From Escherichia coli (GTDB taxonomy: Bacteria; Pseudomonadota; Gammaproteobacteria; Enterobacterales; Enterobacteriaceae): a stretch of DNA of 64,000 nucleotides. The notes under the pieces were generated by a model. That model was not told the DNA's origin, did no database searches, and saw nothing but the letters and a program-made list of their open reading frames with translations. Positions within the stretch are counted from its first letter, which is position 1, and each line of letters opens with the position of its first letter. The stretch is taken from assembly GCF_050920415.1 (NCBI RefSeq), contig NZ_CP169309.1. One strand, 5' to 3'. This document shows, piece after piece, positions 3,898 through 29,063 of the stretch. The position numbers and the translations under genes were made by a program.

Positions 3898-3920
3898 ATA
3901 TGCAATAATTAATTGCACTG

Positions 3921-4104: not shown

Positions 4105-4133
4105 AAAATGGCGCTGTATTTGCGCCATTTTTA
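4105..4133 (-). terminator. Hairpin terminator downstream of yagU (possibly bidirectional)
   Basis: aatggcgc / gcgccatt stem flanked by A-run and T-run. Confidence 0.45.
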
Positions 4134-4145
4134 TCATTCAATGCA

Positions 4146-4760: not shown

Positions 4761-5165
4761 ATTTACCCTGTTTGTTTCATTATGTTGTACACCTCTTCAG
4801 GAGTATTCATAAAACAAGATAAATGTAAAGAACTGTATTGTTTTGTATAATGCAATGGTGACTAATCGCCAATTAATATAAGCACCATCATTTCTCCATA
4901 TTTTTATGTTAGAAGTGACAACGATTTGCAGGGTGATGCAGAGCTGACAATCACAGGTTTCCTTATCGGTTTTTGCATCGCACAACTAAAGCAATAAACT
5001 AGCTCCCGTCATCGGCGAATATGAATTAATTAGCCGGGCTCATAGCTGCATTCGCGTTTTAAGAATAATCCTCCTGCTCTCACCGACTATGCTTAACGTT
5101 TAAAAAAGCATCAACACTCTCGCAACGCACTCTTATTTTCCCCTTTAGAATACCGGAGGCCTGGT

Positions 5166-5855
5166 ATGAGCAACCAAGGCGAATACCCCGAAGATAATCG
5201 GGTTGGGAAGCACGAGCCGCACGATTTTAGTTTGACCCGCCGCGATCTGATTAAAGTGAGCGCCGCAACGGCGGCGACCGCCGTGGTTTATCCTCATTCT
5301 ACGCTTGCGGCAAGCGTTCCGGCAGCTACACCCGCGCCAGAGATAATGCCCCTGACACTTATGGTGAACGGCAAAACCGAGCAGCTTGAGGTGGATACCC
5401 GAACCACGCTACTGGACGCTTTGCGTGAAAATCTGCATCTGATCGGTACCAAGAAAGGTTGCGATCACGGACAGTGCGGAGCCTGTACCGTGCTGGTCAA
5501 TGGTCGCAGGCTTAATGCCTGCCTGACGCTGGCAGTCATGCATCAGGGGGCCGAGATCACCACCATTGAAGGCCTGGGTTCACCAGAGAATCTTCACCCC
5601 ATGCAGGCGGCCTTTATCAAGCATGATGGCTTCCAGTGCGGCTACTGCACCTCCGGGCAAATTTGCTCATCAGTAGCGGTGCTAAAAGAGATTCAGGACG
5701 GCATTCCCAGTCACGTCACGGTCGATTTGGTTTCCCCTCCAGAAAGAACTGCCGATGAGATCCGTGAACGTATGAGCGGCAACATCTGTCGCTGTGGTGC
5801 ATACGCTAACATCCTTGCCGCCATTGAAGATGCTGCGGGGGAGATAAAATCATGA
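5166..5855 (+). CDS. paoA: Periplasmic aldehyde oxidoreductase, 2Fe-2S subunit
   Basis: 229 aa, Tat-type signal ([14 protein letters not shown]), two Cys clusters typical of 2Fe-2S ferredoxin-like subunits. Confidence 0.9.
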
Positions 5856-6808
5856 AGGCGTTTACCTATGAACGTGTGAACACCCCTGCCGAGGCGGCAC
5901 TTAGCGCTCAGCGCGTACCCGGCGCAAAATTTATCGCTGGCGGGACCAATCTGCTGGACCTGATGAAGCTGGAAATTGAAACGCCAACCCACCTTATCGA
6001 TGTGAACGGGCTCGGGCTCGATAAGATTGAAGTGACCGACGCGGGTGGGCTGCGCATCGGCGCACTGGTACGGAACACCGACCTGGCGGCTCACGAGCGC
6101 GTGCGTCGTGATTACGCGGTACTCTCCCGCGCTCTGCTCGCTGGCGCGTCTGGTCAGTTACGTAATCAGGCAACCACCGCAGGTAATCTGCTCCAGCGCA
6201 CGCGCTGCCCCTATTTTTACGACACCAATCAGCCCTGCAATAAGCGCCTGCCCGGGAGCGGCTGCGCGGCACTTGAAGGCTTTAGCCGTCAGCACGCGGT
6301 GGTAGGCGTAAGCGAAGCCTGCATTGCCACCCATCCGAGCGATATGGCGGTCGCAATGCGGTTGCTGGATGCGGTGGTGGAAACCATCACGCCGGAGGGA
6401 AAAACTCGCAGTATCACACTGGCTGATTTTTATCACCCACCGGGGAAAACGCCGCACATTGAAACCGCCCTGCTTCCCGGTGAGCTTATCGTTGCGGTGA
6501 CGTTACCTCCGCCGCTCGGCGGAAAACATATCTACCGCAAGGTGCGCGATCGCGCCTCCTACGCCTTTGCCCTGGTATCGGTCGCGGCGATTATTCAGCC
6601 TGACGGCAGCGGGCGCGTCGCGCTGGGCGGAGTAGCACATAAGCCCTGGCGCATTGAGGCTGCGGATGCTCAGCTATCCCAGGGGGCGCAGGCCGTGTAT
6701 GACGCGCTGTTCGCCAGCGCCCATCCCACCGCTGAAAATACCTTTAAACTCCTGTTGGCGAAGCGAACGCTTGCCTCCGTACTGGCTGAAGCGAGGGCAC
6801 AGGCATGA
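5852..6808 (+). CDS. paoB: Aldehyde oxidoreductase FAD-binding subunit
   Basis: 318 aa, CO dehydrogenase/xanthine dehydrogenase FAD-subunit-like; 4-bp overlap with paoA. Confidence 0.9.
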
Positions 6809-9003
6809 AATTTGATAAACCCGCAGGGGAAAACCCGATCGATCAGCTGAAGGTTGTCGGTCGTCCCCATGACCGCATCGACGGACCGCTGAAAACTACC
6901 GGCACGGCACGCTACGCCTACGAATGGCATGAAGAAGCCCCCAACGCCGCCTATGGCTATATCGTCGGTTCCGCCATTGCCAAAGGGCGCCTCACCGCCC
7001 TTGATACGGACGCCGCGCAAAAAGCGCCGGGCGTACTGGCTGTCATTACCGCCAGTAACGCTGGGGCACTCGGCAAAGGCGACAAAAACACCGCCAGGCT
7101 GTTAGGCGGCCCCACTATTGAGCACTATCATCAGGCCATTGCGCTGGTAGTGGCCGAGACCTTCGAACAGGCGCGAGCGGCGGCCTCGCTGGTGCAGGCG
7201 CACTATCGCCGTAATAAAGGAGCTTACTCCCTGGCGGACGAGAAACAGGCCGTCAGTCAGCCGCCGGAAGACACGCCCGATAAAAACGTTGGTGACTTTG
7301 ACGGGGCTTTCACCTCCGCTGCGGTGAAAATTGATGCTACATACACGACCCCGGACCAGAGCCATATGGCGATGGAGCCGCATGCCTCGATGGCCGTCTG
7401 GGATGGAAATAAGCTTACCCTCTGGACCTCAAATCAGATGATTGACTGGTGCCGCACCGATCTGGCAAAAACGCTGAAAGTGCCCGTGGAGAATGTGCGT
7501 ATTATCTCCCCGTATATCGGCGGAGGGTTTGGCGGCAAGCTATTCCTGAGAAGCGATGCGCTGCTGGCGGCCCTCGCCGCCCGTGCGGTGAAACGTCCGG
7601 TTAAAGTGATGCTCCCCCGCCCCACTATTCCCAATAACACCACGCACCGCCCCGCCACCCTTCAGCACCTGCGTATCGGTGCCGACCAGAGCGGGAAAAT
7701 CACCGCTATCTCACATGAAAGCTGGTCCGGAAACCTGCCCGGCGGCACGCCGGAAACGGCGGTACAGCAAAGCGAATTACTCTACGCAGGGGCAAACCGT
7801 CATACCGGCCTGCGGCTCGCCGCGCTTGATTTGCCGGAAGGGAACGCCATGCGTGCGCCCGGCGAAGCCCCCGGTCTGATGGCGCTCGAAATCGCGATCG
7901 ACGAACTGGCGGAAAAAGCGGGCATCGATCCCGTCGAGTTTCGCATCCTGAATGACACTCAGGTTGACCCCGCCGACCCGACGCGCCGCTTCTCTCGCCG
8001 TCAGCTTATCGAGTGCTTGCGCACCGGAGCGGATAAATTTGGCTGGAAGCAGCGCAACGCCACACCCGGACAGGTGCGCGACGGGGAGTGGCTAGTCGGC
8101 CACGGTGTTGCGGCGGGCTTTCGCAATAATCTGCTGGAAAAATCGGGTGCTCGGGTTCACCTCGAACAAAATGGCACCGTTACCGTAGAAACGGACATGA
8201 CCGACATTGGCACCGGCAGCTACACCATTCTGGCCCAGACGGCAGCGGAAATGCTTGGCGTACCGCTGGAGCAGGTTGCGGTTCACCTCGGCGATTCCAG
8301 TTTCCCGGTTTCTGCGGGTTCTGGTGGACAATGGGGCGCGAATACCTCCACCTCCGGCGTTTACGCCGCCTGTGTGAAACTTCGCGAAATGATTGCCTCG
8401 GCGGTCGGGTTTGATCCTGAGCAGTCGCAGTTTGCCGACGGCAAGATTACCAACGGTACCCGAAGCGCCACGCTACATGAGGCCACCGCAGGCGGCAGAC
8501 TGACAGCGGAAGAGAGCATTGAGTTCGGCACTCTCAGCAAGGAGTACCAGCAATCGACCTTTGCCGGGCATTTTGTGGAGGTCGGCGTGCATAGCGCGAC
8601 GGGAGAAGTTCGGGTCCGGCGTATGCTCGCCGTGTGCGCAGCGGGGCGCATTCTGAATCCGAAAACTGCACGCAGCCAGGTCATTGGCGCGATGACTATG
8701 GGCATGGGCGCGGCACTGATGGAGGAGCTGGCGGTAGATGACCGTTTGGGCTACTTCGTTAATCACGATATGGCGGGGTATGAGGTGCCGGTTCATGCGG
8801 ATATCCCAAAACAGGAGGTGATTTTCCTGGATGATACCGACCCCATCTCCTCCCCGATGAAGGCCAAAGGTGTCGGTGAGCTGGGCCTGTGCGGCGTGAG
8901 CGCGGCTATCGCCAACGCGGTGTATAACGCCACCGGTATTCGGGTACGGGATTATCCCATCACTCTGGATAAGCTGCTCGATAAACTGCCGGATGTGGTT
9001 TAA
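6805..9003 (+). CDS. paoC: Aldehyde oxidoreductase molybdopterin-binding subunit
   Basis: 732 aa xanthine-dehydrogenase-family Mo subunit; overlaps paoB stop. Confidence 0.9.
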
Positions 9004-9012
9004 GGAGGAACA

Positions 9013-9969
9013 ATGTCATACTCGCTTTTTGACAAAGACGAGCACTGGCATAAGCCAGAGCAGGCGTTTCTCACCGATGACCACCGGACCATTCTGCGCT
9101 TCGCCGTAGAGGCGCTAATGTCCGGTAAAGGAGCGGTGCTGGTGACGCTGGTGGAGATACGCGGCGGCGCGGCGCGCCCGCTCGGAGCACAGATGGTGGT
9201 GCGCGAAGATGGTCGTTACTGCGGTTTTGTCTCTGGCGGCTGCGTGGAGGCCGCTGCCGCTTTTGAAGCGCTGGAGGTGATGGGCTCAGGCTGCGATCGC
9301 GAAATTCGCTATGGCGAAGGTTCGCCGTGGTTTGACATCGTTCTGCCCTGCGGCGGTGGGATCACGCTGACGCTCCATAAACTACGCTCGACACAGCCTC
9401 TGCTCGCCGTGCTGAACCGCCTGGAACAGAGAAAACCGGCGGGTCTGCGCTACGATCCGCAAGCTCAATCGCTGGTGTGCCTGCCCACGCAAACCCGAAC
9501 GGGCTGGAATCTCAATGGCTTTGAGATGGGGTTCAGGCCATGCGTCAGGCTGATGATTTACGGACGTTCTCTTGAGGCGCAGGCAACCGCGAGTCTTGCA
9601 GCAGCCACAGGCTATGACAGCCATATCTTCGATATTTTTCCGGCCTCAGCCAGCGCTCAGATCGATACCGATACGGCGGTCATTTTGCTGTGCCATGATC
9701 TCAACCGGGAGCTGCCAGTGTTGCAGGCCGCGCGAGAGGCAAAACCCTTTTATCTCGGCGCATTGGGCAGCTATCGAACCCACACGTTACGTCTGCAAAA
9801 GCTCCACGAGCTAGGATGGTCCAGGGAGGAGACAGCGCAAATCCGGGCACCCATCGGGATATTCCCCAAAGCCCGGGATGCGCATACTCTGGCACTCTCC
9901 GTGCTGGCAGAAGTCGCTTCTGTACGTCTCCATCAGGAGGAGGATTCATGCCTGCCCCCGTCGTCGTGA
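9013..9969 (+). CDS. paoD: Molybdenum cofactor insertion chaperone (XdhC-like)
   Basis: 318 aa XdhC/CoxI-like; last gene of the pao operon; AGGAG RBS upstream. Confidence 0.85.
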   Translation: MSYSLFDKDEHWHKPEQAFLTDDHRTILRFAVEALMSGKGAVLVTLVEIRGGAARPLGAQMVVREDGRYCGFVSGGCVEAAAAFEALEVMGSGCDREIRYGEGSPWFDIVLPCGGGITLTLHKLRSTQPLLAVLNRLEQRKPAGLRYDPQAQSLVCLPTQTRTGWNLNGFEMGFRPCVRLMIYGRSLEAQATASLAAATGYDSHIFDIFPASASAQIDTDTAVILLCHDLNRELPVLQAAREAKPFYLGALGSYRTHTLRLQKLHELGWSREETAQIRAPIGIFPKARDAHTLALSVLAEVASVRLHQEEDSCLPPSS

Positions 9970-10070
9970 TCCTTGCGGCCGGGCGTGGAGAGCGCTTTCT
10001 CGCCTCCGGGGGAAATACCATAAATTAAGAGAAAAATCTGCAGTAGCCGTTTTAGAAAATCACCTAAATC

Positions 10071-10104
10071 GTTTAAAAGAGCGCCCAACCCATAGTGGGC
10101 GCTC
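10071..10104 (-). terminator. Rho-independent terminator for the MFS transporter gene
   Basis: 9-bp stem gagcgccca / tgggcgctc followed on the minus strand by a T-run. Confidence 0.45.
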
Positions 10105-10147
10105 ATCGCCTTGTGTAACTTATTCAGCAACGCGCGCCCTCGCCGGA

Positions 10148-11341
10148 CTAAAGCGCACCGGCCTTCTGGCGTGCGGTAACAAAGGTCAGTACGCCAGCGC
10201 ATAGGAGCAGCACGCTACTCATGGCAAACGTACTCTGCCAGCCGAGGTGGTCAAACACGATGCCTCCTGCCGTCGATCCAAGGGCGATTGAAAGCTGAAT
10301 CACCGCGACCATTAGCCCGCCTCCGGCTTCCGCGTTGTCGGGCAACGTACGCGCAATCCATGTCCACCACCCGGTTGGCGCGGCGGTTGCCAGCATGCCC
10401 CAGAGGCCTAACAGCAGCGAGACCATCCAGACGTGATGCCCGGTAAGCATCAGGCTGATGGCAATGACGGCCATCAGTCCAGGTATAGCCATCAGCGTGG
10501 GGTAGAATTTCCTGTTGAGGAATGTCGAAACAACCAGCGTGCCGATAAAACCGGCTACTCCGATAATCAGCAAAATCAACGACAAGCCTGAGGAATCAAC
10601 CAGCGTCACGGTCTCCAGGAACGGGCGCACATAGGTGAATAGCGCAAACTGCCCCATGAAAAACAGGCCACAAGCTATCATGCCGACCACAACCATGCGG
10701 CGGCTAAATAAGCGGAATACCGTGCCAAATGACGTGTGGCTTTTATTCGCATCCATACTGGGCAGGCTGATGCACTGCCAGATAAAGGCGACAACCGCCA
10801 TGGGCACCAGGCACAAGAAAGCGCCTCGCCATCCGACCGTAGCCCCCAGATAGCTTCCCAGCGGTGCGGCCACGACCGTCGCCAGCGCATTACCGGCATT
10901 GAAAATCGCCAGCGCACGCGTGACCTGTTGCTGCGGCACCAGACGAATCGCCGTTGCCGCAGACATCGACCAGAATCCGCCAATCGCCACACCAATCATC
11001 GCGCGACCGATCATATACATCAGATAACTGGAAGCCAGCGCAATAATAAGCCCCGATACGGCCATCAGAACCGTCATTCCCAGCAGCAGGAATTTACGAT
11101 TCATCTTTCCTGCTAGCGTTGAAAGCGTCAGGCTGGTCAGAACCGCCAGTGCGCCGGAGATAGCAATCCCCTGCCCAGCCAACCCCTCCGTCACGCCTAA
11201 ATCGCGGGCAATCGGCGTGAGCAGGCTGACGGGCATAAATTCAGAAGCAATCAGCACAAACACGCACAGGGTCATGGCAAAAATACCGCCCCAGTATGCG
11301 CGCTGATGATGAGGTGATGGTGTTTGGTTTAGCGTCGACAT
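10148..11341 (-). CDS. MFS transporter (DHA1-like, 12 predicted TM helices)
   Basis: 397 aa, hydrophobic helices throughout, MFS-type loop motifs. Confidence 0.8.
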   Translation of the reverse strand: MSTLNQTPSPHHQRAYWGGIFAMTLCVFVLIASEFMPVSLLTPIARDLGVTEGLAGQGIAISGALAVLTSLTLSTLAGKMNRKFLLLGMTVLMAVSGLIIALASSYLMYMIGRAMIGVAIGGFWSMSAATAIRLVPQQQVTRALAIFNAGNALATVVAAPLGSYLGATVGWRGAFLCLVPMAVVAFIWQCISLPSMDANKSHTSFGTVFRLFSRRMVVVGMIACGLFFMGQFALFTYVRPFLETVTLVDSSGLSLILLIIGVAGFIGTLVVSTFLNRKFYPTLMAIPGLMAVIAISLMLTGHHVWMVSLLLGLWGMLATAAPTGWWTWIARTLPDNAEAGGGLMVAVIQLSIALGSTAGGIVFDHLGWQSTFAMSSVLLLCAGVLTFVTARQKAGAL

Positions 11342-11416
11342 AGTGAAATTTCACGAAGGCCAGGATAAAAGCCACCAGCCTATGGCCGGTGGCTTTGCAT
11401 CAATTCAGGAGAGGTT

Positions 11417-12553
11417 TTATTTCAGTTTGGTCTGGAAAAATTGTTCGAACTTCGCGAAAGGTATTTTTCCGGCCACGTTATCGTACAGGTCCACGTGATT
11501 TGCCCCAGGTACCACCACCAGCTCTTTATCTTTACTGCCAACCGCCTTGTAAGCATCTTCAGCAAAATAGCGTGAATGTGCTTTCTCACCGGTCACAATC
11601 AGCGTCGGAATGGTGATTTCACTGGCGTAACTCAACAGCGGCATATTCATAAATGACAGCGGCATCGTTGCCGTCCACGCCCCGGTAGAGTTAACGGAAC
11701 GTTCGTGGAAGCCGCGCGGCATGCGATAGTAGTCAAAGAACTCTTTCAGTACCGAATGAGGATTTGCCGGCAGCGTTTCTGGCAGAATGCGCTCGCCCGC
11801 ACTGACCTTGCCGTTGCTATCGACATTAATATCATGACCACCATGAGCGAACGTTCCGCTCTGCGCATCCTTCCAGCGCTGTTCATTCAGATATTGCAGA
11901 ACAGCACGACGGTCGGCGGTAGAATAACGGTCTTCGCCATCCCCCACACCATGGCCCATCGCCCGGCTCATGTCATACATCACGCTGGTAGCAACCGCTT
12001 TAACGCGGGTATCCATCGCCACGTCGTTCAGCGCCATGCCGCCCCAGCCACAAATACCGAGCAGCCCGATACGGTTGCGATCTACCTCTTTTTGCAGCCC
12101 TAAGAAATCCACCGCCGCGCTGAAATCTTCAGTGTTGATATCCGGTGAGGCGACGTTTCGCGGATAGCCGCCGCTTTCCCCGGTGTAAGAAGGATCGAAC
12201 GCCAGGGTAACAAACCCTCGTTCCGCCAGCGTCTGCGCATACAGGCCGCTGGATTGCTCTTTCACCGCGCCAAATGGCCCACTGACCGCAATCGCCGCCA
12301 GCTTGCGATCGCCACGGTCTTTAGGCAGGTAAAGATCGCCCACTAAGGTGATGCCATATCGGTTCGGGAACGAGACTTTACGGTGATCGACTTTCTGGCT
12401 CTCGGCGAACGTTTTATCCCATTTATCTGTCATGGACACAGGGGCATTAGGATTGGTTGAATCAGCATAACTCATTGTCGTGACTCCACTTAATGATGCG
12501 AAAAGCAGCATGGTCGGCATCGCGGTTTTTAGCGTTCGGGTGAAGGCTTTCAT
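11417..12553 (-). CDS. Secreted alpha/beta hydrolase with Cys nucleophile elbow (dienelactone-hydrolase-like)
   Basis: Signal peptide; GICGWGG elbow; start placed at internal ATG because the ORF-track start is a TTG; no clear RBS. Confidence 0.7.
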   Translation of the reverse strand: MKAFTRTLKTAMPTMLLFASLSGVTTMSYADSTNPNAPVSMTDKWDKTFAESQKVDHRKVSFPNRYGITLVGDLYLPKDRGDRKLAAIAVSGPFGAVKEQSSGLYAQTLAERGFVTLAFDPSYTGESGGYPRNVASPDINTEDFSAAVDFLGLQKEVDRNRIGLLGICGWGGMALNDVAMDTRVKAVATSVMYDMSRAMGHGVGDGEDRYSTADRRAVLQYLNEQRWKDAQSGTFAHGGHDINVDSNGKVSAGERILPETLPANPHSVLKEFFDYYRMPRGFHERSVNSTGAWTATMPLSFMNMPLLSYASEITIPTLIVTGEKAHSRYFAEDAYKAVGSKDKELVVVPGANHVDLYDNVAGKIPFAKFEQFFQTKLK

Positions 12554-12739
12554 AAAAATCCCCATAAAAAACAACAGAGAGATACAGGTTTCCGACGGAC
12601 AACACTGCGGTGCTTTACTTTGATGGGGTCATTATAGTGAGCAGAATTAGTGCTGATTAGGGGGCGATTAATGCTAAGATTAATACCATATTGTTATAAA
12701 TTAATGCGGAGATTGCCGGCATGAAGGGGGGATGTTTCA

Positions 12740-13624
12740 ATGGCGAAAAGGGAGAACTACAACGAGCTGTACCTGCTTATGCAGGTGGTGCGGGAAGGCA
12801 GCTTTACCGCAGCGGCTCAGCGGCTGGGTCTTGCTCAGTCAGGAGTCAGCCGTTCTGTTCGCGAGCTTGAAGAAAGGCTCGGCGTCCAGCTGCTAGTGCG
12901 CACCACGCGTAAACTGTCGCTGACGCAAGCAGGCGAGCAGCTCTACCAGAAGACGGCATCTGGATTTGAAATGTTAGATCTTGGGCTTGCCACACTGGCG
13001 CACTATCGAGAGACGCCCTCCGGCACGGTGCGTATCAATGCCAGCCAGCACGCGATTGATAAATGCCTGCTGCCAAAGCTGGCGGTATTTAAACAGCGAT
13101 ATCCTGATATCCGGCTTGAACTGATAAATGAGAGCCGGTTCGTCGATATCATCGAGGAAAGATTCGATGCTGGTGTCCGCCTGGGGCCTGAAGTCGGCCA
13201 GGGTATGGTCGCGGTACGCATCACGCCCGATATGGAGATGGCAATTGTGGGGACTCCGGAACATTTTCGTCGCTATGGTTTTCCGCAAACCCCGACTGAT
13301 TTAAAGGCACATCCCTGTATCGCCTATCAGTTTGCCGACGGCAGCGTATACCAGTGGGAACTCAATCAGGATGATAAAAAAATTACCCACCGGCCTGAAG
13401 GGCAATGGGCCCTATCCGACAGCTATATGGAAGCAGAAGCCGCACGGCTGGGCCTCGGATTGGCCTATGTTCCTGTTGAACTGGTTGCGGATGATTTAGA
13501 ACACGGTAAGCTTATCAGAGTGTTGCAGCGTTACAGCCTGCGAATGGAGGGATTGTTTCTCTATTACCCTCATCGCAACGTCTCCCCCGCTCTGCGGATG
13601 GTCATTGATACATTGAAAATCTGA
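12740..13624 (+). CDS. LysR-family transcriptional regulator
   Basis: N-terminal HTH (FTAAAQRLGLAQSGVSRSVRELEERLGVQLL), 294 aa; divergent from the hydrolase gene. Confidence 0.85.
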   Translation: MAKRENYNELYLLMQVVREGSFTAAAQRLGLAQSGVSRSVRELEERLGVQLLVRTTRKLSLTQAGEQLYQKTASGFEMLDLGLATLAHYRETPSGTVRINASQHAIDKCLLPKLAVFKQRYPDIRLELINESRFVDIIEERFDAGVRLGPEVGQGMVAVRITPDMEMAIVGTPEHFRRYGFPQTPTDLKAHPCIAYQFADGSVYQWELNQDDKKITHRPEGQWALSDSYMEAEAARLGLGLAYVPVELVADDLEHGKLIRVLQRYSLRMEGLFLYYPHRNVSPALRMVIDTLKI

Positions 13625-14333
13625 ACGTTAACAACGACCGACTCTTCACTGTGCAATATTGTGTCAGGTAGTCACTCTGCGTTCAATTCCAGGGGCCGCT
13701 TTGAGCGAGAAAGAGCGGACTTATCTGTACAAGGGGACTATCCAGCAATGGAGATCACCCATAAGAAAAAAGTACCAGGCTCCCTCGACAACCTTCATCC
13801 GGGAATTTAGCCTCAATCAACATTTTTATATCTGTCAGGTTACTTCATTATGAAAACCGATCAATATCGTTGTTTTTGTTGCAATAGTAGAATACGCGTA
13901 TTTATTCCTCCATTTCTATTAATAACGGCCATAAACTGTTCACTTCACTGATATTTAAAATATGCATCCTTTTCCTGTTTTTCAAGTTGTTCAGCGGCGT
14001 AAGAAAAAGTATTAATTATGAATTCGACGATTTAACCATTTCTGTCTGATTGGTAATCATCCGTGATTAATGCTGGTCTATTGATTACGCCAGCATTAAC
14101 CGCTTAGGGATGTATTCTTCCTGATCATATACCTCCCTCGAAAAGAGAGAAAATAAAACTGTGTCCAATATTACTCTACCACTCCAGACCGAAGCATCGG
14201 TAGAATTAGCAGAACGACTGGTACAATAGATTGGGATAGCGTCATTTGTCAGGTATTCCATTGCCTGACAAATGACAATTTTGAGTCAATAGACGTGCTT
14301 CTTGATCATGTCTTAAAAATTATACCATGAGCC

Positions 14334-14564
14334 TTATGAAGCATCATTTTTACTGACTGGTGTTAACTTTGCTATCATATAAACTCTGTTCTTAAAAAAC
14401 GCGCCCAGAATTTTATATGATTTCCCTTGTTTTTCTGCCTGTAAAGAAATTTCTTTTTCAGTGCTGTTAATGGTTGAACCGACGGCAGTAATCGTTTTGG
14501 CGACGCTACTGAATGATAATAAAGACAGTGTAACCACAACAATTAAAGAACAGATAGTATTCAC
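14334..14564 (-). CDS. Small secreted protein, possibly YhcN/BhsA (DUF1471) family
   Basis: GTG start 7 nt after an AGGAG RBS; signal peptide; C-terminal pattern resembling DUF1471; lies in AT-rich DNA. Confidence 0.4.
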   Translation of the reverse strand: MNTICSLIVVVTLSLLSFSSVAKTITAVGSTINSTEKEISLQAEKQGKSYKILGAFFKNRVYMIAKLTPVSKNDAS

Positions 14565-14775
14565 GTTAATTCTCCTGACAATTGAGAGGGTGAGTTTTAT
14601 ATACATAGGTATTAAACATGAGTCATATTTACTCCAAGAGAAAATACTCCTTCTGTAATTAAACCTTCATCTCCTTCGGGGTGAGAAATACATAATGCAT
14701 CTTACTATGAAAAACAGGTGGATATAAATTTTCCTCCCTACCTATTTAATAAAACGTGAATATAAAAGTTATTCT

Positions 14776-15498
14776 TCAGTTTGCAGATGCAGTAGGTCTG
14801 ATGGTAATTTCGGTTGTATCAACGCTTTCGGGAGATTCAATAATATGCCTTACAGCACGGGCAATATCCGCGGGTTGAAGTGCAACAGAACGGTAGGCGT
14901 CCATTGACTTCATGGTTTCCACATGGGTCATGGTTGAAGCCAGTTCACTTTCTACAACCCCAGGATTTACGCAGGTCACACGGATTTTCGAGCTTTCCTG
15001 CCGTAAGCCATCAGAAATAGCCCGTACTGCAAATTTTGATGCGCAATAGACTGCGCCTGTGGGCACAACAGAAAGGGCACCAATAGAACCAAGATTGATT
15101 ATCTGACCGGAACCCTGTGCGTCCATCACCGGAAGTACAGCGCCAATTCCCCAAAGTACGCCTTTGATATTCACGTCAATAGTGAGCTCCCATTCATTTT
15201 GTTTTCCTGCTGCAAGCGGTGAAAGCGGCATAACGCCCGCATTATTGATAAGAACATAAACTCGCCCCCAGCTATCCAGCGCTGCTTGCACGAAATCTGC
15301 CATGGACTGTCGGTCTGTGACATCCAACTCCCGCGCTTTAGCAATTCCTCCTGCGCGGCAGATTTCTTTTGCAATGGCTTCGATACGCTCAAGTCTGCGT
15401 GCTCCCAGTAAAACCTTTGCACCTGTCGTTCCCAGCTCTCTGGCAATACCTTCCCCAATACCACTTGATGCGCCGGTGATTAATATGACCTTATCCAT
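14776..15498 (-). CDS. Short-chain dehydrogenase/reductase (SDR)
   Basis: TGASSGIG cofactor motif and YxxxK catalytic motif; start at ATG preceded by GAAGGAG. Confidence 0.85.
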   Translation of the reverse strand: MDKVILITGASSGIGEGIARELGTTGAKVLLGARRLERIEAIAKEICRAGGIAKARELDVTDRQSMADFVQAALDSWGRVYVLINNAGVMPLSPLAAGKQNEWELTIDVNIKGVLWGIGAVLPVMDAQGSGQIINLGSIGALSVVPTGAVYCASKFAVRAISDGLRQESSKIRVTCVNPGVVESELASTMTHVETMKSMDAYRSVALQPADIARAVRHIIESPESVDTTEITIRPTASAN

Positions 15499-15596
15499 TA
15501 CGTTCTCCTTCAAATGTGTTCGGAGAGATAATAGAACTTTATGATTGGTTCCAGTATCCTGCTTTCAATGTACTCAATGGTTAGCGGCATTAAACA

Positions 15597-16496
15597 ATGA
15601 AAATCGATCTTAATCTTTTACCCATTTTTATCGCGGTAGCAGAAGAGAGTAATTTCAGTAAAGCCGCCGCACGACTGGGCGTTACCCGTTCAGCGGTCAG
15701 TCAGGGAATAAGACGTCTTGAAGATGCATTCGGGACAATGCTTGTAATGCGGACCACGCGCTCAGTTAATTTGACGGAAGCGGGAGAACGGCTGCATAAA
15801 TCGTTGTCATTACCTTTATCCGGTATTGAGGCAGCGTTCGAAGAGATGGTCTCTGACCATGTACCACGTGGACATCTCAGAATCGCGGTGACGTCGATAG
15901 CAGAAGAATTTCTTTCAGGTCCGCTAATCGCTTCGTTTGCAGCTGCCAATCCAGCCGTTACGCTTGATATTGTTGTCACGGATGAGGAATTCGATATCGT
16001 TACCGCAGGTTACGATGCTGGCGTAAGGCTCGGAGAGGTCATTGAAAAAGACATGATTGCTGTTCCCCTTACCGGTAAGCAGCGTGAAATGGTCGTTGCC
16101 TCTCCCTCCTATCTCGCAGCCAACAGCACACCTGTTCATCCGCGCGAACTTGTGAATCATAAGTGTATCGGCTGGCGTCAGTCCCCGGAGGTTGCGCCTT
16201 ATCGCTGGCCATTTGAAGAAAACGGTAGAGCTTTCGACCTTGCGATTGAACCGCAGATTACGACGAATGATCTGCGTCTGATGTTGAGGCTGGCTCTTGC
16301 CGGCGGAGGAATAACAATTGCCACTCAGGAAACGTTCAGGCCATATATTGAAAGCGGTAAGCTTGTATCGCTGCTTGATGACTTTCTTCCACAATTTCCG
16401 GGCTTCTATCTGTATTTCCCACAGCGTCGCAATATTGCACCAAAGCTCCGCGCCCTGATTGACCACGTCAAGGAATGGCGGCAGCAATTGGCTTAA
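15597..16496 (+). CDS. LysR-family transcriptional regulator
   Basis: HTH (FSKAAARLGVTRSAVSQGIRRLE), 299 aa; divergent from the SDR gene. Confidence 0.85.
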   Translation: MKIDLNLLPIFIAVAEESNFSKAAARLGVTRSAVSQGIRRLEDAFGTMLVMRTTRSVNLTEAGERLHKSLSLPLSGIEAAFEEMVSDHVPRGHLRIAVTSIAEEFLSGPLIASFAAANPAVTLDIVVTDEEFDIVTAGYDAGVRLGEVIEKDMIAVPLTGKQREMVVASPSYLAANSTPVHPRELVNHKCIGWRQSPEVAPYRWPFEENGRAFDLAIEPQITTNDLRLMLRLALAGGGITIATQETFRPYIESGKLVSLLDDFLPQFPGFYLYFPQRRNIAPKLRALIDHVKEWRQQLA

Positions 16497-16623
16497 ATGT
16501 CTGCACCTGCACTGCCTGATGTCAGAACAGTATTTTGAGAAATTGCCAGGGTTACAATGGCACAAATATGGCACAGGAGGAAAACGTGGTGTAATTGAAT
16601 ATGAGGTAACTACTTGATTTAAA

Positions 16624-16699
16624 TGGTGCCGATAATAGGAGTCGAACCTACGACCTTCGCATTACGAATGCGCTGCTCTACCAACTGAGCTATATCGGC
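16624..16699 (-). tRNA. thrW: tRNA-Thr, anticodon CGT
   Basis: 76-nt cloverleaf reading GCCGATATAGCTCAGTTGGTAGAGC...GGTTCGACTCC...CACCA on the minus strand; anticodon loop ..CGT..; upstream of proA as in E. coli. Confidence 0.9.
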
Positions 16700-16813
16700 C
16701 CTGAAAGGACATGTTCACGAGCGTGAATCACGGTGGACAAGGTTAAAACTAACCGGGCGATGCGTCAATGGCCTTGTGAATCAAATGGCTACTTTTGCAT
16801 CACCCGGTTTTAT

Positions 16814-23077: not shown

Positions 23078-24535
23078 GTGTCTGAACTGTCTCAATTATC
23101 TCCACAGCCGCTGTGGGATATTTTTGCCAAAATCTGTTCTATTCCTCACCCGTCCTATCATGAAGAGCAACTCGCTGAATACATTGTTGGTTGGGCAAAA
23201 GAGAAAGGTTTCCATGTCGAACGCGATCAGGTGGGTAATATCCTGATTCGTAAACCTGCTACCGCAGGTATGGAAAATCGTAAACCAGTCGTCTTGCAGG
23301 CCCACCTCGATATGGTGCCGCAGAAAAATAACGATACCGTGCACGATTTCACTAAAGATCCTATCCAGCCTTATATTGATGGCGAATGGGTTAAAGCGCG
23401 CGGTACCACGCTGGGCGCGGATAACGGCATTGGTATGGCCTCTGCACTGGCGGTTCTGGCTGACGAAAACGTGGTTCACGGCCCGCTGGAAGTGCTGCTA
23501 ACCATGACCGAAGAAGCCGGTATGGACGGGGCGTTCGGCTTACAGAGCAACTGGTTGCAGGCTGACATTCTGATTAACACCGACTCCGAAGAAGAAGGTG
23601 AAATCTACATGGGTTGTGCTGGGGGGATCGACTTCACCTCCAACCTGCATTTAGATCGTGAAGCCGTTCCGGCTGGTTTTGAAACCTTCAAATTAACCTT
23701 AAAAGGTCTGAAAGGCGGTCACTCCGGCGGTGAAATCCACGTTGGCCTGGGTAACGCGAACAAACTGCTGGTGCGCTTCCTGGCGGGACATGCAGAAGAA
23801 CTGGACCTGCGTCTTATCGATTTCAACGGCGGCACACTGCGTAACGCCATCCCGCGTGAAGCCTTTGCGACCATTGCTGTCGCAGCTGATAAAGTCGACG
23901 CGCTGAAAACGCTGGTGAATACCTATCAGGACATCCTGAAAAACGAGCTGGCAGAGAAAGAGAAAAATCTGGCCTTGTTGCTGGACTCTGTTGCGAACGA
24001 TAAAGCTGCCCTGATTGCGAAATCTCGCGATACCTTTATTCGTCTGTTGAACGCCACCCCTAACGGTGTGATCCGCAACTCCGACGTAGCAAAAGGCGTG
24101 GTTGAAACCTCACTGAACGTCGGTGTCGTGACCATGACCGACAACAACGTAGAAATTCACTGCCTGATCCGTTCTCTGATCGACAGCGGTAAAGACTACG
24201 TGGTGAGCATGCTGGATTCGCTGGGTAAACTGGCAGGCGCGAAAACAGAAGCGAAAGGCGCATATCCTGGCTGGCAGCCGGACGCTAACTCCCCGGTGAT
24301 GCATCTGGTACGCGAAACCTATCAGCGTCTGTTCAACAAGACGCCGAACATCCAGATTATCCACGCGGGTCTGGAATGTGGTCTGTTTAAAAAGCCGTAT
24401 CCGGAAATGGACATGGTTTCTATCGGGCCAACCATTACCGGTCCACACTCTCCGGATGAGCAAGTTCACATCGAAAGCGTAGGCCATTACTGGACACTGC
24501 TGACTGAACTGCTGAAAGAAATTCCGGCGAAGTAA
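23078..24535 (+). CDS. pepD: Cytosol non-specific dipeptidase (aminoacyl-histidine dipeptidase)
   Basis: 485 aa, recognisable PepD sequence. Confidence 0.95.
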   Translation: MSELSQLSPQPLWDIFAKICSIPHPSYHEEQLAEYIVGWAKEKGFHVERDQVGNILIRKPATAGMENRKPVVLQAHLDMVPQKNNDTVHDFTKDPIQPYIDGEWVKARGTTLGADNGIGMASALAVLADENVVHGPLEVLLTMTEEAGMDGAFGLQSNWLQADILINTDSEEEGEIYMGCAGGIDFTSNLHLDREAVPAGFETFKLTLKGLKGGHSGGEIHVGLGNANKLLVRFLAGHAEELDLRLIDFNGGTLRNAIPREAFATIAVAADKVDALKTLVNTYQDILKNELAEKEKNLALLLDSVANDKAALIAKSRDTFIRLLNATPNGVIRNSDVAKGVVETSLNVGVVTMTDNNVEIHCLIRSLIDSGKDYVVSMLDSLGKLAGAKTEAKGAYPGWQPDANSPVMHLVRETYQRLFNKTPNIQIIHAGLECGLFKKPYPEMDMVSIGPTITGPHSPDEQVHIESVGHYWTLLTELLKEIPAK

Positions 24536-24545
24536 TTACAATAAT

Positions 24546-24575
24546 GTCCACGCCTGCGGGCGTGGACTACTGTTT
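24546..24575 (+). terminator. Rho-independent terminator of pepD
   Basis: 9-bp stem gtccacgcc / ggcgtggac with a 4-nt loop, then a T-containing tail. Confidence 0.55.
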
Positions 24576-24833
24576 GAAGCCAATGGCTATCTATATCGAA
24601 ATAACAAAACATTATGAAACTCATGAAAAGGTCGCATATTTATATAGCTGCGACCATATTTCATGGGGAGAATTTCTGATCACCAAAGAAAGTTTTGCGC
24701 TGGAATCCGTGAAAGAACTTAAGGGTGAAAAGCAGAATTTTTATATGTTCAGAGCCTGGGGCAAAGTCAGGAAAACATACTTAGCCACGGGAGAATTTCC
24801 CCTGGAAACATGTTACGCCGCTTAAAGTCAGAA

Positions 24834-25373
24834 TCATTTTTTCACGCGTTTTACATTTACCATTTTAGCATTACGCCTGCACCACATAGCAATGGCGGCA
24901 GCTACTAATGCCAGTTCCAGTAAAAAAGACCAGTGTAATAAAAAATTGAGCCACCACGGATGATGTACCGCTGTAATATGAAAGAATGCAAATGGCTGGT
25001 TAACGAAAGGCATCAACCACCAGATATCACCGACCAGCGTATCGAGTAATAAATGCGCGATACTATTCAGGCAAAACACCACGCCCAACCACGCCGGAAG
25101 TTTATTCTTCGCAATTGCGGCCCAGACTAATGTCGCCGCCAGCAGAGCAAACCATAATAATGGCCAATGAGACGGGTAAAGATGATGATGTCGTTGCCCG
25201 TTATCCACCAGATAACACCAGAAGAGATCAAAATCGGGTGCAACGGCCCCGACTAAGCCAATAACCATCGCCCACCGCGCATGACGAGAAATCAGCGGTA
25301 GGCGTTTCACTAAAGTACAAGTTATTAAATATCCAGCCGGAAGATGACCGATAAACATGACGAATCCTTTCAT
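24834..25373 (-). CDS. Integral membrane protein, possibly YdjM-like metal-dependent hydrolase
   Basis: 179 aa, several TM helices and His-rich segments; no K-12 counterpart at this position that I recall. Confidence 0.55.
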   Translation of the reverse strand: MKGFVMFIGHLPAGYLITCTLVKRLPLISRHARWAMVIGLVGAVAPDFDLFWCYLVDNGQRHHHLYPSHWPLLWFALLAATLVWAAIAKNKLPAWLGVVFCLNSIAHLLLDTLVGDIWWLMPFVNQPFAFFHITAVHHPWWLNFLLHWSFLLELALVAAAIAMWCRRNAKMVNVKRVKK

Positions 25374-25420
25374 TTTTGCCCGCCGCTTTCACGAAGAAAA
25401 CGGCGGGTGACATTCCTCAA

Positions 25421-26035
25421 TTACACAGCGATAAAAGCCATCCCTGTAAACGTCCGTCGCGGGTTGCCACGTTCAATCTGGTGATGGAACATTCGCCGCT
25501 GCGATTTCAGCGCCGCGCTATTTTCCTGTCGCTGTTGTTCCAGCTTCCAGGCAATCAGTAATCGCGCCAGCCGTTTGTTAGCATGCTGACTGCGCTCTGA
25601 CTGAACCTTCACCCTAATACCGGATGCCAGATGCGTGGCGCGCACAGCCGAGTCGGTTTTATTGACATGTTGACCGCCCGGCCCCGACGAACGCAGCGTC
25701 TCATAATGGATCGCATCGGATTGCTCCTGCTCATCTGCAGTAAAACGCCCAATGCCCAGAAACCAGTTTTTGCGCCCATGATGAGGGCGATACGGACTCG
25801 GACAAATCCACTGGATAGTGCCACACCAGCTTTCGCTTAGTGCCCATGCGTTGTCGCCATCAAGTGAAACCAGCGCCGAACGTAGTGTGTCAGAGTAGCG
25901 ACCCGTTTCTGTTTCCAGCACCGTTACCGCGACGTCTTGTCGGGCAGCTTCTTTAATCAGCCTGTCCAGTGCCTTTTTCACTGCGAGACAACATTCTTCC
26001 GGTCCCTGAGCTGAGGAGAGTTGTAGCAAGATCAT
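25421..26035 (-). CDS. prfH: Peptide chain release factor homolog PrfH (full length)
   Basis: GGQ motif ([16 protein letters not shown]); start at internal ATG (MILLQLSS...) gives about 204 aa; start overlaps the rtcB stop by 4 bp. Confidence 0.85.
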
Positions 26036-27171
26036 CCTTTTTTCCCTCCACTGTTTTTGAGCGTCAGCACCGGACGCAGTCGCGCGACAGGAATAATTAA
26101 ACCGGCCTGCACCAGACATTGCACCACACTTTCAGCCGATTTATAGGCTTGTGGCGCTTCTTCAAAGATGAGTTGTTTATCGCGACAAATTACCCGGCTG
26201 CCAAGTTCAGTACGTGAGAGCTGCGTCGCTGTGTATTTCGCTGCCAGACGCCCTTTACACTCGGTGCGCCCCCATTTACGCCCTGCCCCATGCGCCAGCG
26301 AGTGGAGCGTTTTTTCGTTCGCAACAGGCTTAACCAGCCAGGAGTAATCACCGCGTGAACCGGGAATAATCACCAGACCGTTGTCATCCGGCGTAGCCCC
26401 TTTACGGTGTAACCATCCTTGTTGATCGCCGATTCGACATGCGCTAACAAAGTTATGCGCCACATCCAGAACCGAATTTCCGTTGGCCTTAACTTGTTGC
26501 ATTATGCGCAAAGCGATCAGCTGGCGATTAATACGCGCAAACGCCAGCGCATCATCATGTTCCGCAATATAACTTAGCGCGTCGTCACTGCCTTCAGGCA
26601 AACCATGATGCGAAAACGAGGCAATATGCCGCTGTAAAATAGACTGCCCTAAACCACGCGAGCCGCTATGGACCAGCAGTTGCAGATGCTGCGCATCCAG
26701 ACCTGACAGTGCAAACAGTTCAGCGTCGATAATTTGATCAACTTGTTGCAGTTCTGCGAAGTGGTTTCCGCCACCGATAGAGCCAAGCGCGCAGCGCCAC
26801 GGATGCTGTGCAAACGCTGACGGCAGGTTTTCCTCCAGCCAGCTTTCTTCAGCAACGTCATCCAGCACAGATAATCGCTTTTCAAACTTATCGGCGTTGT
26901 ATTTACGCGCGAGAATATCTGTTTGCCATAGCGCCATGCCGCAGCCGATATCATTGCCGACCAGTGCCGGGTAAAAACGGCCTACGGAGAAGAACGCTGC
27001 GCCAATCGGATAGCCGCGTCCGGGGTGTAAATCTGGCATCCCTACTACGCGTTGCATGTCGGGTAAATTTGCCGTGATGTGTAATTGTTGGATCGCTGAA
27101 CTCTCGATCCACAGGTCATCAGATGCAATGGTAAATACCGCATCGGATAAGGGACGAATATATTTGCCCAT
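26032..27171 (-). CDS. rtcB: RtcB-family RNA ligase (RtcB2-type, partner of PrfH)
   Basis: 379 aa with RtcB-like His/Cys metal-ligand motifs; translationally coupled to prfH. Confidence 0.85.
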
Positions 27172-27184
27172 GTATCATTCCATT

Positions 27185-27312
27185 TATACTCGTCATACTT
27201 CAAGTTGCATGTACTGCGACTGCGTTCGTTCACCCCAGTCACTTACTTTAGTAAGCTCCTGGGGATTCACTCGCTTGTCGCCTTCCTGCAACTCGAATTA
27301 TTTAGAGTATAT
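27185..27312. repeat. ERIC / IRU element
   Basis: Contains the reverse complement of the ERIC core GTGAATCCCCAGGAGCTTAC..AAGTAAGTGACTGGGGTGAACG between rtcB and yafP. Confidence 0.8.
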
Positions 27313-27488
27313 AAATATAAAAATCAGGAAATGGCAGACGAATCCAGGGCAAGAAAAAAAGAATTAATCCTGGAAAGGTCTGCAAAGAGTCATTGATAAA
27401 GGATTTTTCATGATTTACCTCCTTGCAGTTTGTGGAATAAGAAAACGCGCACATATTAGGCGGGCGTTATTTTCATTGCAAGCTGGAT

Positions 27489-27941
27489 TTAGTGTTGCGG
27501 TTTATATCGCATATGAAAATTAGTAAACCACGCTCCCCGGCATTCAACGCGCTGCTGCTTAACTGTCTGAAAACCATAACGTTCAAAAAAGGGTTTTGCG
27601 GTTATGCTGGCGTCCACCGTAAGTTCGGATTCAGACTTAATCAAAGGTTTTAACAAAGCGCTGGCAACCCCACGGCGGGTATATTCAGGGTCAACAAATA
27701 ACATATCGATATAATGTTCAATGCGGGAAATAAAACCAACCGGTTGTGCATTAATCACAGCAACCCGCACTTGTGATTTCGCGAGTTTCTCTTTCCATCG
27801 ATGTTCATCAATCTGCGCCCAGGCGGCAATTTGTTGTGGTGAATAATGCTGACTGGCGGTCATCGTAACCGCTCTAATAAAAATAGCGCATAGTTGCTGA
27901 AAATCGCCAGGCTGATAGTCTCTTATTTGTATATTATTCAT
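27489..27941 (-). CDS. yafP: GNAT-family N-acetyltransferase
   Basis: 150 aa; start overlaps the dinB stop. Confidence 0.85.
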
Positions 27942-28993
27942 AATCCCAACACCAGTTGTCTTTCCATTTGCGGATCCAGCAACGTCACATGCAGCCCCAC
28001 CAGCCGCACACCGCGCCCGCCACGGCGTTCATCCCAGGTTTTACGCGCAGTGGCGATCAAGTCAGCTTTATTCAGCCGCGGCCAGACGTGTTCCTGAGTG
28101 GTTTGCTGAAAATCGTCGAACTTTAATTTCACCCCCTGGCGGGCAATCAGCAAATCAGGTTTTACCTTTGCCAGACGGCGTTCAAGTTCCGGATACAACC
28201 GCTCGATAATCGCTTCACATTCAGACCAATGATGAATATCTTCCGCCATCGTGCGTTCCACACCAACGGATTTTCGCAACCTTTCGCTGTTAACGTCGCG
28301 CTCGTCAATGCCCTGGCTACGCTCCCACAAAATGCGGCCAAATTTGCCAAAGCGTTTAAGCAACGTCACCAGATCACACTTTTGTACATCGCCACAGGTT
28401 CGTAGCCCCATCGCTTCCAGTTTTGCCGCCGAGACTTTGCCGACACCGGGAATTTTTGCCAGCGGTAAGGTTTGCAGAAATGCCGGAACTTCTGCCGGCG
28501 TAATCACAAACTGACCGTTGGGTTTATTCATGTCTGAGGCGATTTTGGCGAGAAACTTGACCGGCGCAACGCCCGCAGACGCCGTCAGTTGCAGCTCGTT
28601 GAAGATCGTCTGGCGGATTTCCTGAGCGATAAGGGTCGCAGAGCCGTGGCAATGTACGCTGTCGGTGACGTCGAGATAAGCTTCATCCAGCGACAACGGC
28701 TCAATACGCGATGTGTAGCGAGAGAAGATTTCGCGGATATGATTTGACGCTTCTTTGTAGGCGTCAAAGCGCCCTGGAAGCAAGGTGAGATGCGGACACA
28801 GTTTGAGCGCCATGCCGGTTGGCATTGCGCTACGCACGCCAAATTTACGCGCGGGATAATTGGCGGTGCTGATCACCCCCCGGCGTTCGCGGCTGCCGCC
28901 AATAGCAATAGGGATATCGCGCAGGGCGGGATTGTCGCGCATCTCCACCGCGGCGAAAAAGCAGTCCATATCCACATGAATGATTTTACGCAT
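27938..28993 (-). CDS. dinB: DNA polymerase IV
   Basis: 351 aa, Y-family polymerase N-terminus ([22 protein letters not shown]...). Confidence 0.95.
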
Positions 28994-29063
28994 TGCTCAC
29001 CTCTCAATACTGGTAAAGTATACAGTGATTTCAGAGTTTGAGAAATGCGTAAAGATTCAGCAT

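Follow-up and report, generated by a model that had tools for sequence, protein, structure and literature searches.

The window analyzed here, a 64,000-nucleotide (nt) stretch of the Escherichia coli chromosome (contig NZ_CP169309.1), carries a two-gene unit coding for the RNA ligase RtcB2 and the release-factor homologue PrfH. This unit, the leader upstream of it, and the genes next to it are the subject of the present analysis. The region examined is identical to that of strain MFDS1022581 (NZ_CP169399.1). The genes are arranged in the order crl-frsA-gpt-pepD and a small plus-strand open reading frame (ORF), followed on the minus strand by a ydjM-family gene, prfH, rtcB2, yafP, and dinB; beyond these lies the Flag-2 cluster.

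The rtcB2-prfH Pair

26032-27171, minus strand: rtcB2, 379 amino acids (aa), RNA ligase of the RtcB2 subfamily (from the ORF and family profiles)
25421-26035, minus strand: prfH, 204 aa, release-factor homologue H, with the GGQ motif at residues 120-122
26032-26035, minus strand: ATGA overlap between the rtcB2 stop and the prfH start codons (from the sequence and ORF coordinates)

The rtcB2 gene is located directly upstream of prfH, on the same strand. The prfH gene starts with the ATG at 26035 and does not correspond to the longest ORF, which begins at 26119 and has 232 aa. A preliminary description of the locus had presented the two genes as full length and coupled by a 4-bp overlap, and this was borne out by end-to-end profile matches and by the ATGA at 26032-26035. 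RtcB2 matched the NCBIfam models PRK09588 (639 bits, cut-off 407, positions 1-378 of 379) and TIGR03073 (621 bits, cut-off 272, full length), as well as the Pfam RtcB family. PrfH matched the equivalog NCBIfam model TIGR03072 (324 bits, cut-off 167, positions 1-200 of 200). Frameshifts and internal stops, which like truncation would argue against functional products, were looked for in both genes, and none was found. Through the ATGA overlap, translation of rtcB2 and prfH is predicted to be coupled, so that the two proteins would be made together.

Residues required for catalysis are retained in both proteins. In RtcB2, the GMP-accepting (guanosine monophosphate) histidine H294 is present within an HGAGR motif, and the metal/GMP motifs GNDIGCG, GGGNHF, and HSGSRGLG line up with those of RtcB proteins of solved structure. 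In PrfH, Q122 is present within GPGGQHV. PrfH is devoid of release-factor domain 1: the 204-aa protein covers only residues ~115-310 of RF2. It is ~97% identical, over 202 aa, to chain 8 of PDB entry 7SA4 (E. coli PrfH), while RtcB2 is 96% identical to its Nissle 1917 counterpart. PrfH ends in AV and not in EG, a two-residue difference that stems from the junction, at this point, of an 875-bp module described below.

Compared with other alleles at a synonymous divergence (dS) of ~0.15-0.25, both genes have ratios of nonsynonymous to synonymous divergence (dN/dS) of 0.06-0.15, with values of 0.11-0.15 for rtcB2. Thus, rtcB2 and prfH are under purifying selection.

Correspondence to a Published Ribosome Rescue and Repair System

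PrfH is known to release the peptide from 70S ribosomes whose 16S rRNA has been cut in the decoding center, and the cut 16S rRNA is re-ligated by RtcB2 (PMC9304027). In the same work, E. coli PrfH was cloned from strain ATCC 25922 and its structure on the damaged ribosome was solved by cryo-electron microscopy (PDB 7SA4), RtcB2 H294 and PrfH Q122 were mutated to kill each activity, and the two-gene operon was established as the experimentally sufficient unit. The operon protects ATCC 25922 from colicin E3, and no protection was seen in a K-12 derivative (PMC9223846). Repair has also been reconstituted, and E3-cleaved ribosomes were found to accumulate at the start codon (PMC13166195). The link to rescue of ribosomes with damaged 16S rRNA, for example after colicin E3-type cleavage, which had been drawn in the preliminary description, agrees with all three reports.

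The genes in the window share with the ATCC 25922 system their order, the overlapping stop and start codons, H294 and Q122, and the chromosomal position between yafP/dinB and pepD. The identity is ~97% for PrfH and, in comparison with the allele common in E. coli, ~96% for RtcB2. The window differs from ATCC 25922 in carrying a divergent allele, in the last two PrfH residues, in an upstream enterobacterial repetitive intergenic consensus (ERIC) element, and in two extra downstream genes.

By analogy with the near-identical proteins for which this has been shown, PrfH of the window would recognize a stalled 70S ribosome with cleaved 16S rRNA. Its GGQ motif would hydrolyze the peptidyl-tRNA, as the ~97% identity to chain 8 of 7SA4 suggests, after which the ribosome can be disassembled. 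RtcB2 would join the 2′,3′-cyclic phosphate or 3′-phosphate end to the 5′-OH of 16S rRNA via a His294-GMP intermediate. Judging from its sequence, the pair in the window is thus the predicted rescue and re-ligation system for ribosomes cut by colicin E3-type toxins, a system that has been published.

RtcB1 and RtcB2 are 28% identical and act on mutually exclusive substrates (PMC9304027). The rtcBA operon (RtcB1/RtcA) resembles the operon in the window in that it encodes an RtcB-family 3′-phosphate/5′-OH RNA ligase with a His-GMP mechanism. It differs in its control, which is exerted by the σ54 activator RtcR, whereas the operon in the window has a putative σ70-like promoter and a leader ORF.

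The K-12 Deletion and the Distribution of the Operon

25945-26971: 1,027-bp segment deleted in K-12 (from BLAST against K-12 and the junction sequences)

In K-12, only truncated remnants of the two genes had been expected, and this is indeed the case. The K-12 sequence aligns with positions 25429-25944 and 26965-27600 of the window, with a 7-base overlap at the joint, and reads ...GACGTCTTGCCGGGTAAAAAC... across the junction. The deleted segment is flanked by imperfect 7-bp direct repeats, TGTCGGG (25938-25944) and TGCCGGG (26965-26971). In K-12, prfH lacks ~30 codons at its N-terminal end and rtcB2 lacks ~310 at its C-terminal end; the remnants are out of frame, and both are labeled as pseudogenes in RefSeq. 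A single 1,027-bp deletion between the 7-bp repeats would therefore have cost K-12 both activities. This deletion has been published before (PMC1586002, 2006; PMC9304027, 2022). Both the function of the pair and the K-12 deletion are thus already known, and our principal finding adds nothing new to them.

The 1,020 bases absent from K-12 were found, at a coverage of at least 80%, in 2,674 of 5,426 complete E. coli genomes (~49%). The intact state is thus the ordinary state of about half of E. coli. Among the E. coli copies, several independent partial deletions and one IS5 insertion were seen. In E. albertii (locus L010, positions 5839-7588), the called genes code for a 405-aa RtcB and a 166-aa PrfH, as opposed to 379 and 204 aa; the rtcB2/prfH junction is altered there, and the pair may be damaged.

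The allele in the window shows ~94-95% DNA identity to most E. coli copies and at least 99% identity in only two genomes. Synonymous divergence from the common E. coli alleles amounts to a dS of 0.15-0.25 for pepD, prfH, and rtcB2 (positions 23078-27171); for comparison, the dS of pepD against E. albertii is 0.30. With a dS this high, the allele may belong to a divergent lineage, or the segment may have been imported.

A Conserved Leader Upstream of rtcB2

Upon alignment of the yafP-rtcB2 spacers of Escherichia and Superficieibacter, one block appeared nearly unchanged, with the adjacent genes being saturated with synonymous changes (dS ~1.7). The leader region, which lies outside the part of the window covered by the preliminary description, contains the following elements.

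27488-27172, minus strand: leader region upstream of rtcB2
27453-27481, minus strand: putative promoter, TTGCAA (27481-27476), a 17-nt spacer, and TAATAT (27458-27453), conserved across genera
27424-27417, minus strand: Shine-Dalgarno sequence of the leader ORF, AAGGAGGT
27411-27364, minus strand: leader ORF, 15 codons, MKNPLSMTLCRPFQD
27383-27378 and 27374-27369, minus strand: 5′ arms of the predicted helix P2 (last codons of the leader ORF), GCAGAC and TCCAGG
27348-27343 and 27339-27334, minus strand: 3′ arms of the predicted helix P2, CCTGGA and GTCTGC, pairing with the 5′ arms
27334-27327, minus strand: segment X (anti-Shine-Dalgarno), CCATTTCC, complementary to the rtcB2 ribosome-binding site
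27169-27181, minus strand: rtcB2 start codon and ribosome-binding site, GGAATGA (27181-27175), the predicted pairing partner of X

A scan of the intergenic regions with consensus promoters and terminators gave nothing useful, the promoter-like site of the leader scoring 8 of 12, below the threshold. The −10-like hexamer is followed by a GC-rich sequence, GTGCGCG (27446-27452), that is conserved across genera. Such a sequence is similar to the discriminator found in promoters of translation genes that are under stringent control.

The breadth of the leader was established in two ways. In species genomes, a protein-anchored scan gave 12 loci in 8 genera; in metagenomes, a scan with a DNA pattern that fixed most of helix P2 gave 43 stretches, 35 with the leader layout and 8 chance hits. 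A homologue of RtcB2, down to 52% identity, was detectable after the leader in 28 of the 35 stretches (the other seven end too soon after the leader) and in none of the eight chance hits. The leader was seen with every sampled operon, in Escherichia, Citrobacter, Superficieibacter, Phytobacter, Franconibacter, Intestinirhabdus, Leminorella, and metagenomic relatives. In Leminorella, the operon is found in another neighborhood and the leader is retained; the leader therefore belongs to the operon. The copy from Intestinirhabdus alba (locus L032) has an insertion of ~168 nt in the P2 loop, with both arms intact; the PrfH match at this locus covers only 123 aa.

The leader ORF is 15 codons long in 19 of 21 aligned sequences and 13 codons long in the two most distant ones. 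It is open to its stop codon in all 23 tabulated sequences. The distance between the Shine-Dalgarno sequence and the ATG was 6 nt in 15 of 15 leaders measured; in frame 0, stop codons occurred in none of 15 leaders, compared to 14 of 15 in frame 1. The first eight codons vary freely, and the peptide is not conserved outside the RNA arms. Codon 11 (27378-27380; codon 9 in the 13-codon forms) is always AGA or AGG, the rarest arginine codons in enterobacteria. The A/G change in this codon is both synonymous and compensated in P2, so that an effect of the codon is inseparable from RNA pairing.

Pairing in helix P2 and in the duplex between segment X and the rtcB2 ribosome-binding site was evaluated in 21 sequences. 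Standard pairs were present in 95% of cells, compared to 17-45% when the partners were slid against each other. The pair 58:119 is A-U in 14 sequences, G-U in three, and G-C in four. The fourth base of the ribosome-binding site varies between A and U, and each of the 21 sequences has the complementary U or A opposite to it in X, beside a one-base bulge. With the exception of the allele in the window, the observed duplexes between X and the ribosome-binding site had energies of −7.0 to −9.8 kcal/mol (mean −7.5), compared to a mean of −5.8 for combinations that were not observed.

Alternative pairings are predicted as well. Helix P1 is formed by CUGCAAAG, located beside the leader Shine-Dalgarno sequence, and CUUUGCAG in the ORF, and overlaps a P2 arm; P1 and P2 have GCAG in common, and an extended helix P3 competes with P2. 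When free RNA was folded to minimum energy, P1 formed, and the entire start region of rtcB2 was paired with X and the 3′ arm of P2. When a ribosome footprint was forced on the leader start or on codon 5, P2 formed, and the unpaired probability of the rtcB2 site rose in nine of ten sequences (from 0.31 to 0.45-0.48 in the Nissle leader). No such opening was obtained with a footprint on codons 8-15.

Two other roles for leader elements were considered and rejected. The leader does not appear to be an intrinsic terminator: the U-run is located 10 nt past P2, in the loop of the X:ribosome-binding-site hairpin, and the bases in between do not make up a conserved stem. Helices P5 (leader Shine-Dalgarno sequence with X) and P3b (UUGCCC with GGGCAA) break in Leminorella, with no compensation.

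We are fairly confident that the leader is a functional cis-regulatory element that hides the rtcB2 ribosome-binding site. The leader, with a dedicated promoter, a short ORF that is translated, and helices that alternate with one another, would probably govern the operon. A tentative and rather doubtful extension is that the leader senses damage, in that ribosomes held at the leader start codon release the rtcB2 site. According to this model, a ribosome trapped at the start codon of the leader ORF would go on covering the Shine-Dalgarno-proximal segment; P2 would then form, the rtcB2 ribosome-binding site would be freed, and the remaining intact ribosomes would translate rtcB2. A stall at the start codon was chosen as the direction of the switch because of the constrained folding and of the arrest of E3-cleaved ribosomes at start codons (PMC13166195).

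An alternative, to which we also give less than even confidence, is that the leader senses no ribosomes and is simply a promoter with a structured 5′ untranslated region that sets a constant low level of translation, or that it codes for a micro-protein. Covariation directly backs only the sequestration of the ribosome-binding site, and the predicted effect of a parked ribosome is small, both of which would fit such a passive leader. On the other hand, the frame and length of the ORF and the spacing of its Shine-Dalgarno sequence are kept while its first eight codons vary, and the 3′ half of the ORF is a P2 arm that overlaps the alternative Shine-Dalgarno pairing, a layout that is standard for translation-sensing attenuators. 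A micro-protein is disfavored by a peptide that is unconserved outside the RNA arms.

The damage-sensing model has a parallel in translational attenuation of the ermC type and in the control of ribosome-protection genes, such as those of the ARE-ABCF family, by leader ORFs. As in ermC-type systems, the leader has a short ORF equipped with a Shine-Dalgarno sequence, the genes under control serve to repair or protect ribosomes, and the segments are predicted to pair either 1:2 and 3:4 or 2:3, segment 4 being the downstream ribosome-binding site. Unlike in ermC, segment 1 of the leader in the window is the Shine-Dalgarno/start region and not the interior of the ORF, and the model calls for neither an arrest peptide nor a drug, the signal that we propose being a damaged ribosome at the start codon. 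No description of a promoter, leader, upstream ORF, leader peptide, or regulation of rtcB2-prfH was found in the searchable literature, and nothing is annotated at the leader in the curated K-12 record. The leader is thus apparently undescribed.

Two Extra Genes between pepD and prfH

24546-24567: 9-bp G+C-rich terminator-like hairpin after pepD, common to the fuller variants of the locus
24583-24825, plus strand: orphan gene for an 80-aa protein homologous to a putative immunity protein (93 aa, starting at 24544, in the annotation)
24834-25358, minus strand: YdjM-family (PF04307) inner-membrane putative metal-dependent hydrolase, 174 aa (longest ORF to 25373)
25379-25407: 12-bp G+C-rich hairpin in the gap between prfH and the ydjM-like gene, no U-run on either strand

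In both K-12 and Nissle 1917, positions 24539-25413 of the window (875 bp) are replaced by 46 bp with a terminator hairpin. This comparison confirms that the two extra genes between pepD and prfH, for which the preliminary description named no K-12 counterparts, are indeed without any. The 875-bp module was found in 325-329 of the 5,426 E. coli genomes (~6%), always as a single copy and always on the chromosome. PADLOC and PHROGs searches with all four proteins gave no match.

The first gene had been described as a 179-aa membrane protein. While the gene and the membrane nature of its product hold, 174 aa is the more likely length: every homologue begins with MFIGHLPAGYL, an AAAGGA Shine-Dalgarno sequence precedes the second ATG (25358), and the Prokaryotic Genome Annotation Pipeline calls the same start. 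The protein matched Pfam PF04307 with 35.8 bits (cut-off 29). There were 376 homologues, and PF04307 was present in nearly all of the 120 listed. Residues H5, D42, D44, D52, H58, H59, H64, H102, D106, H142, and E148 are invariant in 26 homologues. The AlphaFold model is a six-helix bundle (mean predicted local distance difference test score, pLDDT, 88), for which a Foldseek search against the PDB returned no match. The dN/dS of the gene is 0.07-0.21.

YdjM of K-12 is an inner-membrane protein whose gene is SOS-regulated through a LexA box. The protein in the window belongs to the same Pfam family, is likewise a membrane protein made up of helices, in which His and Asp residues are conserved, and is encoded near the SOS gene dinB. 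It differs from K-12 YdjM in being a distant paralogue (35.8 bits), present in ~6% of E. coli, with no LexA box upstream. No LexA box (CTGT-N8-ACAG, at most one mismatch) was found between prfH and the ydjM-like gene or upstream of rtcB2; the sole box nearby is that of dinB (29010-29025).

The second gene, previously noted as a possible small ORF, is real, with a likely span of 24583-24825 (80 aa). The annotated 93-aa start (24544) falls inside the pepD terminator hairpin; we placed the start at 24583 because the homologues are 80 aa long. Apart from one of 81 aa in a metagenome contig, homologues were found only in Escherichia and Salmonella (the E. albertii and Salmonella copies being 80 aa long). 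Against distant alleles the dN/dS is 0.12-0.20, and the ORF is therefore a real gene.

The contexts of the homologues point to the function. In Salmonella, a homologue (60% identical) is located 10 bp past the stop codon of a full-length Rhs toxin or, in an alternative context, behind this Rhs C-terminal fragment present as an orphan. In the metagenome contig, a 578-aa non-Rhs protein has the same C-terminal domain (52% identity), and the 81-aa homologue follows 2 bp later. Toxin-immunity pairs are recognized by just this pattern, in which a shared toxin tip is carried by different scaffolds and is followed in each case by the same small gene. The toxin part was found neither in the window nor, by blastn, in the 5,426 E. 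coli genomes, and the gene in the window is therefore called an orphan. Sequence searches of Pfam, NCBIfam, and the PDB with the 80-aa protein, a 171-aa protein described below, and the toxin domain gave no match; the toxin domain had no fold match either. The 80-aa gene is thus a putative orphan immunity gene of a polymorphic-toxin family. It is similar to the orphan immunity genes of Rhs and contact-dependent inhibition (CDI) systems in being small and in having homologues immediately 3′ of a toxin C-terminal domain on varied scaffolds. It differs from them in not being located in an rhs or cdi locus.

In E. albertii and some E. coli, the gap between pepD and prfH is fuller and contains an extra 171-aa ORF between pepD and the 80-aa gene (positions 4450-4965 of loci L010 and L011 and 4458-4973 of loci L012-L014), for which two membrane helices are predicted and searches returned no family. 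An 11-bp direct repeat, TCAAGGATGAA, flanks this ORF in E. albertii. The repeat could have mediated loss of the ORF in the lineage of the window.

One could envision that all four genes form an anti-toxin island, in which the YdjM-family hydrolase and the 80-aa protein cooperate with RtcB2 and PrfH; toxin entry, for instance, might be the step on which the membrane hydrolase acts, with the small protein perhaps neutralizing the toxin. The genes are adjacent, and the ydjM-like gene follows prfH by 62 bp on the same strand. The 25379-25407 hairpin between them is not a canonical terminator, and with no terminator-like U-run, co-transcription is possible. The small protein is of the immunity type, and both the operon and immunity genes guard against rival bacteria. 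The synteny, however, makes such an island very unlikely. The ydjM-like gene occurs together with the operon in Superficieibacter, but it is found at the same place, between dinB/yafP and pepD, in the absence of rtcB2-prfH in Klebsiella aerogenes, and it is far from the operon and unlinked to it in Halopseudomonas. Among the 12 species loci with the operon, the ydjM-like gene is present in four and missing from eight, and the small gene is missing from nine. Some 88% of the E. coli genomes that keep the segment missing from K-12 have neither extra gene, and the two-gene operon suffices experimentally (PMC9304027). The same synteny (K. aerogenes, Halopseudomonas, and 4 of 12 loci) rules out the ydjM-like gene as a conserved third gene of the operon. 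It is probably best regarded as an old, often lost neighbor in the dinB-pepD interval, and not as a partner of the operon.

Changes in the 5′ Region of the Allele in the Window

27185-27311: ERIC (intergenic repeat unit, IRU) element, 127 bp, an imperfect palindrome between the U-rich loop of the leader and the rtcB2 ribosome-binding site

We take this element to be an ERIC repeat on the basis of the ERIC primer sequences. It is multi-copy in E. coli genomes (median of six places per genome), and a search of Rfam produced only a sub-threshold match of the element to V_AS5. At the position upstream of rtcB2, it is present in K-12 and some Escherichia, is absent from Nissle 1917 and CFSAN061770, and is represented by a partial copy only in E. 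albertii and Escherichia sp. E1V33. In addition, a G-to-A change at position 27175 makes the rtcB2 site of the window GGAATGA instead of GGAATGG, and the energy of its duplex with X is −5.1 compared to ~−7.5 kcal/mol.

That the operon is intact in sequence but silent or decaying, i.e., a cryptic remnant heading to the K-12 state, is a most improbable explanation: frequent loss (the segment is gone from about half of E. coli, and partial deletions and the IS5 insertion occur), the ERIC element and the weakened pairing of the ribosome-binding site in the window, and the altered 405/166-aa junction of E. albertii would all fit it, but both genes evolve with a dN/dS of 0.06-0.15 and have intact catalytic residues, the leader, the promoter-like site, and the coupling are all conserved, and several Escherichia lineages have ERIC-bearing alleles with intact genes.

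Other Features of the Window

On the dinB side of the operon, dinB (27938-28993) and yafP (27489-27941) also overlap as ATGA (27938-27941), and the yafN-yafO toxin-antitoxin pair, located between these two genes in K-12, is missing here and in Nissle 1917. The Flag-2 lateral flagellar cluster is intact and extends from 29064 to beyond 48660, with lafU, motA, a gene for a FliA-like sigma factor, lafA, flgA-L, and others; K-12 retains only a lafU pseudogene of it. At the other end of the window, a lambdoid prophage (1-16700), located at a tRNA-Thr gene beside proA, carries lysis genes, two DNA methyltransferase genes, and a gene for a KAP-family NTPase.

Discussion

The explanation that best accounts for the locus as a whole, and in which we have high confidence, is that the window contains an intact copy of the known RtcB2-PrfH rescue and repair operon, with the two extra genes standing outside this machine and the leader probably governing its expression. 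Several points weigh against this interpretation. The proteins that have been tested differ from those encoded in the window at six PrfH residues and at the last two, and at ~4% of RtcB2 positions. The ERIC insertion or the change at 27175 could alter expression or loosen control. As for the leader, covariation is confined to two base pairs, most of helix P2 was preset by the pattern that found the extra examples, and the effect of a parked ribosome on the unpaired probability of the rtcB2 site is small (~0.3 to ~0.45) and nil in the ERIC-bearing allele of the window.

The leader switch, the orphan immunity-type gene, and the YdjM-family neighbor are leads, not results. The gap between pepD and prfH is a small variable spot with stepwise gene loss, in which an orphan immunity-type gene lies beside an anti-toxin repair operon. 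With its ERIC insertion and its altered ribosome-binding site, the allele in the window supplies natural variants of the switch that we propose. The published work we found does not deal with the way in which the operon is turned on, and the conserved leader offers a concrete model that can be mutated. If the model is true, the cell would gauge damage to its own decoding center with a decoy ORF.

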